Below the pieces are notes generated by a model. The model made no database searches. It saw nothing but the letters and a program-made list of their open reading frames with translations, and was not told where the DNA came from. The position numbers were made by a program, and so were the translations under genes. 64,000 nucleotides of DNA from Escherichia coli (GTDB lineage Bacteria; Pseudomonadota; Gammaproteobacteria; Enterobacterales; Enterobacteriaceae): the NCBI RefSeq assembly GCF_003334405.1, contig NZ_QOWM01000005.1. The stretch is one strand, 5' to 3'. Shown one piece after another: positions 49,378 to 49,630 of this stretch; position 1 is the stretch's first letter, and each line of letters starts with the position of its first letter.

Positions 49378-49527
49378 GTTCGTGTCTCCTGAAAAAAATC
49401 GTTCTGAATAAGTGTAAACGCGCGATTGTACCATTACCAATAGCGCTTTTACTATGTTGTGACCTCGGTTCCGGGAAACAAACCTGGCCAGACATTGTTA
49501 CACAACACTCCGGGTAATGCATTCCAA

Positions 49528-49547
49528 TACTGTATATTCATTCAGGT
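49528..49547. promoter_or_regulatory. LexA (SOS) box shared by divergent ssb and uvrA promoters
   Basis: TACTGTATATTCATTCAGGT matches CTGT-N8-ACAG with one mismatch. Confidence 0.85.
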
Positions 49548-49630
49548 CAATTTGTGTCATAATTAACCGTTTGTGATCGCCGGTAGCACCATGCCACCGG
49601 GCAAAAAAGCGTTTAATCCGGGAAAGGTGA

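Follow-up and report, generated by a model that had tools for sequence, protein, structure and literature searches.

The 20 bp TACTGTATATTCATTCAGGT at positions 49528-49547 of the window, by which we mean the whole 64-kb stretch of DNA that was analysed, are with a probability of about 0.95 the known Escherichia coli LexA operator (SOS box) of the divergent pair uvrA and ssb, an estimate that includes the mechanism proposed below. The shared uvrA/ssb box is already known and has been described since 1983. According to the literature, the box acts mainly on uvrA and only modestly on ssb. The predicted operator is supported here by its match to a position weight matrix (PWM) of LexA boxes, by its uniqueness in the intergenic spacer, by a peak in the conservation footprint and by substitutions in other genomes that preserve its dyad.

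The window is part of the E. coli chromosome. Its 1.1 kb surrounding the box match many complete genomes at 100% identity and were present in all 5426 complete E. coli genomes, with the flanking genes annotated as ssb1 and uvrA. The open reading frame list and its translation place ssb on the minus strand at 48841..49377 (178 aa, start MASRGVNKV, ATG at 49377), and identical E. coli records annotate it as ssb1, single-stranded DNA-binding protein. On the plus strand, the list gives uvrA at 49631..52453 (940 aa, ATG at 49631), annotated in identical E. coli records as excinuclease ABC subunit UvrA. Positions 49378-49630 are exactly the divergent intergenic spacer between the two genes and comprise 253 nt. 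About 3 kb from ssb, at 45569-46442, the window holds another classic divergent regulator/target arrangement, soxR (minus strand, 154 aa) and soxS (plus strand, 107 aa), which were identified from their translations only.

The box was located by direct reading, the PWM, the conservation footprint and comparison with the published uvrA/ssb box, and it is listed without a strand; on the ssb strand it reads ACCTGAATGAATATACAGTA. Direct reading gave exactly the coordinates of the first-pass annotation, which had proposed a LexA operator one mismatch away from CTGT-N8-ACAG. The half-sites are CTGT (49530-49533) and TCAG (49542-49545), and the core CTGTATATTCATTCAG at 49530-49545 indeed carries a single mismatch, TCAG for ACAG. 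The distances, previously put at about 80 bp from uvrA and about 150 bp from ssb, were measured as 83 nt from the end of the box to the uvrA ATG and 150 nt from its start to the ssb ATG. The far edge of the box is 170 nt from ssb, in agreement with the '-170 nt' given in the literature (PMC9505508). LexA operators are recognized as 20-bp imperfect palindromes, TACTGT(AT)4ACAGTA, in which CTG and CAG are 10 nt apart; the ssb/uvrA box has this dyad, in the form CTGT-N8-TCAG at 49530-49545, and its score falls within the range of real boxes.

The loose 8-base core pattern was rejected as evidence. With up to one mismatch, CTGT-N8-ACAG was found 18 times in the 64-kb window against 16.2 ± 3.8 expected occurrences, and 33 of 100 shuffles reached 18, so that the one-mismatch criterion used in the first-pass annotation is uninformative by itself and matches at chance rate. 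A scan of the perfect 20-mer consensus allowing up to three mismatches returned no match; the ssb/uvrA box exceeds three mismatches. The PWM was a symmetrised log-odds matrix of 20 nt, built from 18 published E. coli LexA boxes (table in PMC3009722) with uvrA/ssb excluded. On this matrix, a check for which the first-pass annotation had regarded a poor score as evidence against the operator, the box scored 16.86 bits and ranked first among the ~64,000 positions of the window, the next score being 11.31 bits. When 64-kb windows were simulated with a first-order Markov model, 2.7% of 1000 reached 16.86 bits at any position, and the mean maximum score in random windows was 10.8 bits. The per-position probability of such a score is ~8e-7, which corresponds to ~2e-4 sites expected in the 253-nt spacer. 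Two other PWM matches in the window, at 35783 (11.3 bits) and 26425 (10.6 bits), equal the best chance match and were dismissed. Within the spacer the second-best 20-mer scored 1.7 bits, so there is one site only, as the earlier description of a 'single' SOS box had it.

The chance-level frequency of the one-mismatch core and the overlap of the block with promoter elements would both suit the explanation that the 20 bp resemble a LexA box by coincidence and are conserved merely as the core of the uvrA/ssb promoters, without LexA binding. A PWM score expected only ~2e-4 times in the spacer argues against this, as does the pattern of conservation. A comparative set of 80 loci was assembled by scanning for the UvrA N-terminus with one genome per species. 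Among the Enterobacterales, 46 loci extend to a neighbouring, divergent ssb, and in all 46 the orthologous box was the top-scoring site of the spacer, with scores of 11.7-22 bits and at ~55-254 nt from the uvrA ATG; this count omits L007 and L035, which end just upstream of uvrA and do not reach ssb. Pasteurellaceae and Tolumonas have the same ssb/box/uvrA arrangement. In an alignment of 48 Enterobacterales sequences the box was the most conserved 20-mer of the spacer, with a mean identity of 0.89, compared with 0.54 over the spacer as a whole, and its near-invariant columns were A-C-T-G ... A-T-A-T ... T-C-A-G. The conserved columns include the LexA contact positions (A-C-T-G ... C-A-G), and the variation that is tolerated, T/G at the fourth core base, is likewise found in known boxes. 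In distant genera the sequence is altered and the CTG-N10-CAG dyad is nevertheless retained, for example as TACTGTTTTTTTATCCAGTA in Vibrio, so that it is the LexA motif that is conserved rather than a particular promoter sequence. Together with the published LexA-dependent expression, this leaves the coincidence explanation with a negligible probability, and we regard it as effectively refuted. The known LexA operator of uvrA and ssb remains the preferred reading.

Within E. coli, an identical 30-mer centred on the box was found in ~4700 of the 5426 complete genomes, and ~720 lacked the exact 30-mer. Three variants were sampled, and all of their differences were outside the 20-mer (C49548T; changes at 49504-49518). 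The substitution C49548T, seen in E. coli strain 131 (L081), is located one base after the box; it is one sampled cause of the loss of the 30-mer and leaves the box intact.

For the dependence on LexA and for the induction of uvrA and ssb we rely on the literature. One SOS box with a heterology index (HI) of 6.98 has been described between divergent ssb and uvrA, controlling both (PMC9505508), for which that study cites Brandsma et al. 1983 (Nature), Brandsma et al. 1985 (NAR) and, for the index, Fernandez de Henestrosa 2000. For uvrA, a moderate SOS dependence was measured by ddPCR (PMC9505508), and the gene is among the UV-induced SOS genes, with the box listed upstream of its transcript (PMC3009722). 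The exact 20-mer also occurs in the sequence of a uvrA-promoter reporter plasmid. When the literature was searched for ChIP-chip data of LexA at the ssb/uvrA locus, only a general review was returned. In Salmonella the shared ssb/uvrA box has an HI of 6.99 (PMC8072944), and a shared site for the two genes is described as general in gamma-proteobacteria (PMC3323433).

A strict consensus scan for sigma-70 promoters and terminators over 49300-49720 found none. For the promoters we attribute this to weak -35 elements, and we hence infer them from conserved extended -10 elements; the exact hexamers and transcription starts are to be read in this sense. The candidate uvrA promoter has the extended -10 TGtCATAAT at 49555..49563 on the plus strand (hexamer 49558-49563), proposed from direct reading and conservation, and nearly every base of it is at least 95% conserved across the 48 Enterobacterales sequences. 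The putative -35 position, 17 nt upstream of the -10, reads TATTCA (49535-49540) and would lie within the LexA box, in line with the literature, where the box is described as overlapping the uvrA -35 (PMC9505508). The overlap of the box with the uvrA promoter is well supported, the hexamers themselves being putative.

According to the same study, ssb has three promoters, of which only the most distal is LexA-repressible (PMC9505508). A candidate for this distal promoter (P1) is found at 49521..49550 on the minus strand, with a putative -35 TTGACC at 49550-49545 and a putative -10 TGGAAT at 49526-49521, and the 18-nt spacer between them contains most of the LexA box. Both hexamers are poorly conserved in the 48-sequence footprint, and the -35 is affected by C49548T, a common E. 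coli SNP, which turns TTGACC into TTAACC. Viewed as a divergent pair, ssb and uvrA have a single site between them, and the promoter overlap on the ssb side consists of the literature statement and the poorly conserved, putative TTGACC-18-TGGAAT. A second candidate on the minus strand, the extended -10 TGgTACAAT at 49425..49433 (hexamer 49430-49425), lies outside the box, ~100 nt away from it, and precedes the ssb ATG by ~45 nt. In the 48-sequence footprint, its TG is conserved together with five hexamer positions out of six (A25, T29, A30, C32 and A33 at least 95%; T26 and T27 70-95%); variation is seen at the n base and at the third position of the hexamer. It probably represents a constitutive promoter of ssb, and it fits the LexA-independent proximal ssb promoters described in PMC9505508. 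The ssb Shine-Dalgarno core GGAG, at 49386..49389 on the minus strand, was recognized from invariant footprint columns.

The remaining spacer was inspected for other elements. Scanning 48700-49900 against Rfam at E<=1 yielded no more than three matches, all of them sub-threshold, attributable to chance and outside the spacer. At 49580-49600, in what is presumably the 5' leader of uvrA, an imperfect hairpin, CCGGTAGCA...TGCCACCGG, precedes an A-run; its folding energy was no better than that of shuffles (z = 0.06), its sequence is poorly conserved, and it is probably not a feature.

The following mechanism is proposed. In undamaged cells a LexA dimer would occupy the imperfect palindrome CTGT-N8-TCAG at 49528-49547, covering, in the uvrA promoter, the -35 position together with the upstream half of the spacer. 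Being placed over the -35, LexA would block RNA polymerase and hold uvrA at a moderate basal level. As the leftward ssb promoter farthest upstream has these same 20 bp in its core, it would be repressed too, and one or two proximal ssb promoters, ~100 nt away and outside the operator, would keep the essential ssb expressed regardless of LexA. Upon DNA damage, RecA filaments would bring about the self-cleavage of LexA and the site would empty; it is expected to do so early, given the intermediate strength of the box (published HI 6.98). After LexA cleavage, uvrA would be up several-fold and ssb up modestly. The first-pass suggestion that one operator could serve both divergent genes is thereby supported, with one qualification: the published shared box and the overlap with the uvrA -35 speak for it, and the service is unequal, mainly to uvrA and modestly to ssb, which stays highly expressed, independently of LexA, from its proximal promoters.

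This inequality can be taken further, to the view that the box is functionally an operator of uvrA only, that its position relative to ssb is a by-product of adjacency, and that the contribution of LexA to ssb control is physiologically negligible, given the dominance of its proximal constitutive promoters. The asymmetric conservation described above, with a near-invariant extended -10 for uvrA against a poorly conserved, SNP-affected candidate P1 for ssb, is in line with it. The inducibility of ssb has also long been disputed, several radioimmunoassay and microarray studies having seen no induction (summarised in PMC9505508), and ssb expression was equal in the wild type and in lexA3 during normal growth (PMC9505508). 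The same work, however, settles the dispute in favour of LexA dependence: by RT-qPCR, ssb responded to UV and to gamma irradiation with a LexA-dependent induction and was overexpressed in an SOS-constitutive strain (PMC9505508). In Salmonella, a value of 9.63 for ssb stands beside 11.16 for uvrA, presumably as fold induction (PMC8072944). The retention of the divergent box arrangement likewise speaks against a role for uvrA only; it is seen in Pasteurellaceae, in Tolumonas and in each of the 46 Enterobacterales loci where ssb is adjacent.

Genomes in which the pair is split bear on both sides of this question. In seven Vibrio species (loci L059, L063, L070, L074, L077, L078 and L080) ssb and uvrA are separated by a LuxR-family regulator gene and galU (locus positions ~400-2500). 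All seven keep a near-consensus box of 22-26 bits, 64-76 nt upstream of uvrA; at ssb, no LexA box was found, with nothing above 2 bits within 300 nt upstream. Judged from these sequences, the operator has stayed with uvrA and not with ssb in the sampled split Vibrio, which favours control of uvrA only. Against this, independent LexA sites have been reported to be kept at both ssb and uvrA in split-pair Vibrionaceae, which was interpreted as selection for ssb control (PMC3323433); those are species other than the seven Vibrio sampled here. Taking both sides together, we consider it unlikely that the box acts on uvrA only, and we continue with an operator that controls mainly uvrA and, modestly, ssb.

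Some further gene arrangements and box distributions were seen in the comparative set. In Zobellella taiwanensis (L072, 980-2460), an MFS transporter gene on the same strand as ssb separates that gene from uvrA, and a 15-bit LexA box, 40 nt upstream of uvrA, adjoins the start of the MFS gene; in this species the partner sharing the operator may be an MFS-ssb unit. Nine loci of Pseudoalteromonas, Shewanella and Alteromonas (L055, L058, L060, L062, L068, L069, L073, L075 and L076) had nothing above ~2 bits within 300 nt upstream of uvrA, and four Pseudoalteromonas loci (L064, L066, L067 and L079) had a strong box ~150-160 nt upstream of it. From this distribution, LexA control of uvrA seems to be variable in Alteromonadales.

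The strength of the operator was assessed against the reference boxes. In leave-one-out scoring, the 18 boxes had a median of 20.4 bits and 5 of the 18 scored below the ssb/uvrA box, which is thus in the lower third, in agreement with the published intermediate HI of 6.98. From the 18-site matrix, heterology indices of 9.2 (uvrA orientation) and 8.5 (ssb orientation) were calculated, values that are not directly comparable with the published one. The base T49542, in the right half-site TCAG, had 0 of 36 symmetrised counts in the reference boxes and contributes -5.2 bits to the score, yet it is at least 95% conserved across the 48 Enterobacterales sequences, which looks like a maintained sub-optimal affinity. 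We tentatively suggest, as a proposal that we rate short of even odds, that the operator is deliberately kept sub-optimal and that its coupling to ssb is lineage-specific. If so, selection rather than drift would hold the box at an intermediate LexA affinity, which would give an early, shallow induction of nucleotide excision repair. The SOS control of ssb would then be an accident of adjacency that is not maintained everywhere, a view partly at odds with PMC3323433.

The shared uvrA/ssb box is a standard example of one repressor site for divergent promoters and appears in every LexA regulon list. Our analysis adds an independent statistical and phylogenetic confirmation, the finding that the 8-base criterion alone is uninformative, the conservation of the very base that weakens the operator, and the observation that the operator appears to travel with uvrA in the sampled split Vibrio.

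When compared with known systems, the box is the same element as the E. coli uvrA/ssb SOS box (Brandsma 1983, 1985; Fernandez de Henestrosa 2000), with nothing different as far as these reports are represented in PMC9505508: the organism, the 20-nt sequence (PMC3009722), the divergent position and the 170-nt distance are all equal. The Salmonella enterica box (PMC8072944) differs in species and is an orthologous shared box, both genes being listed as responsive to DNA damage; under non-inducing conditions, S. enterica ssb was placed in a 'LexA-independent heterogeneity' group (PMC8072944). With other gamma-proteobacterial boxes of the CTGT-N8-ACAG class, among them those of recA, sulA, umuDC and uvrB, the ssb/uvrA box shares the 20-bp dyad architecture and the AT-rich centre. 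It differs from this class in its below-median strength (16.9 against 20.4 bits, leave-one-out), in having TCAG rather than A/CCAG in the right half-site, a feature conserved across Enterobacterales, and in serving two divergent promoters rather than one.
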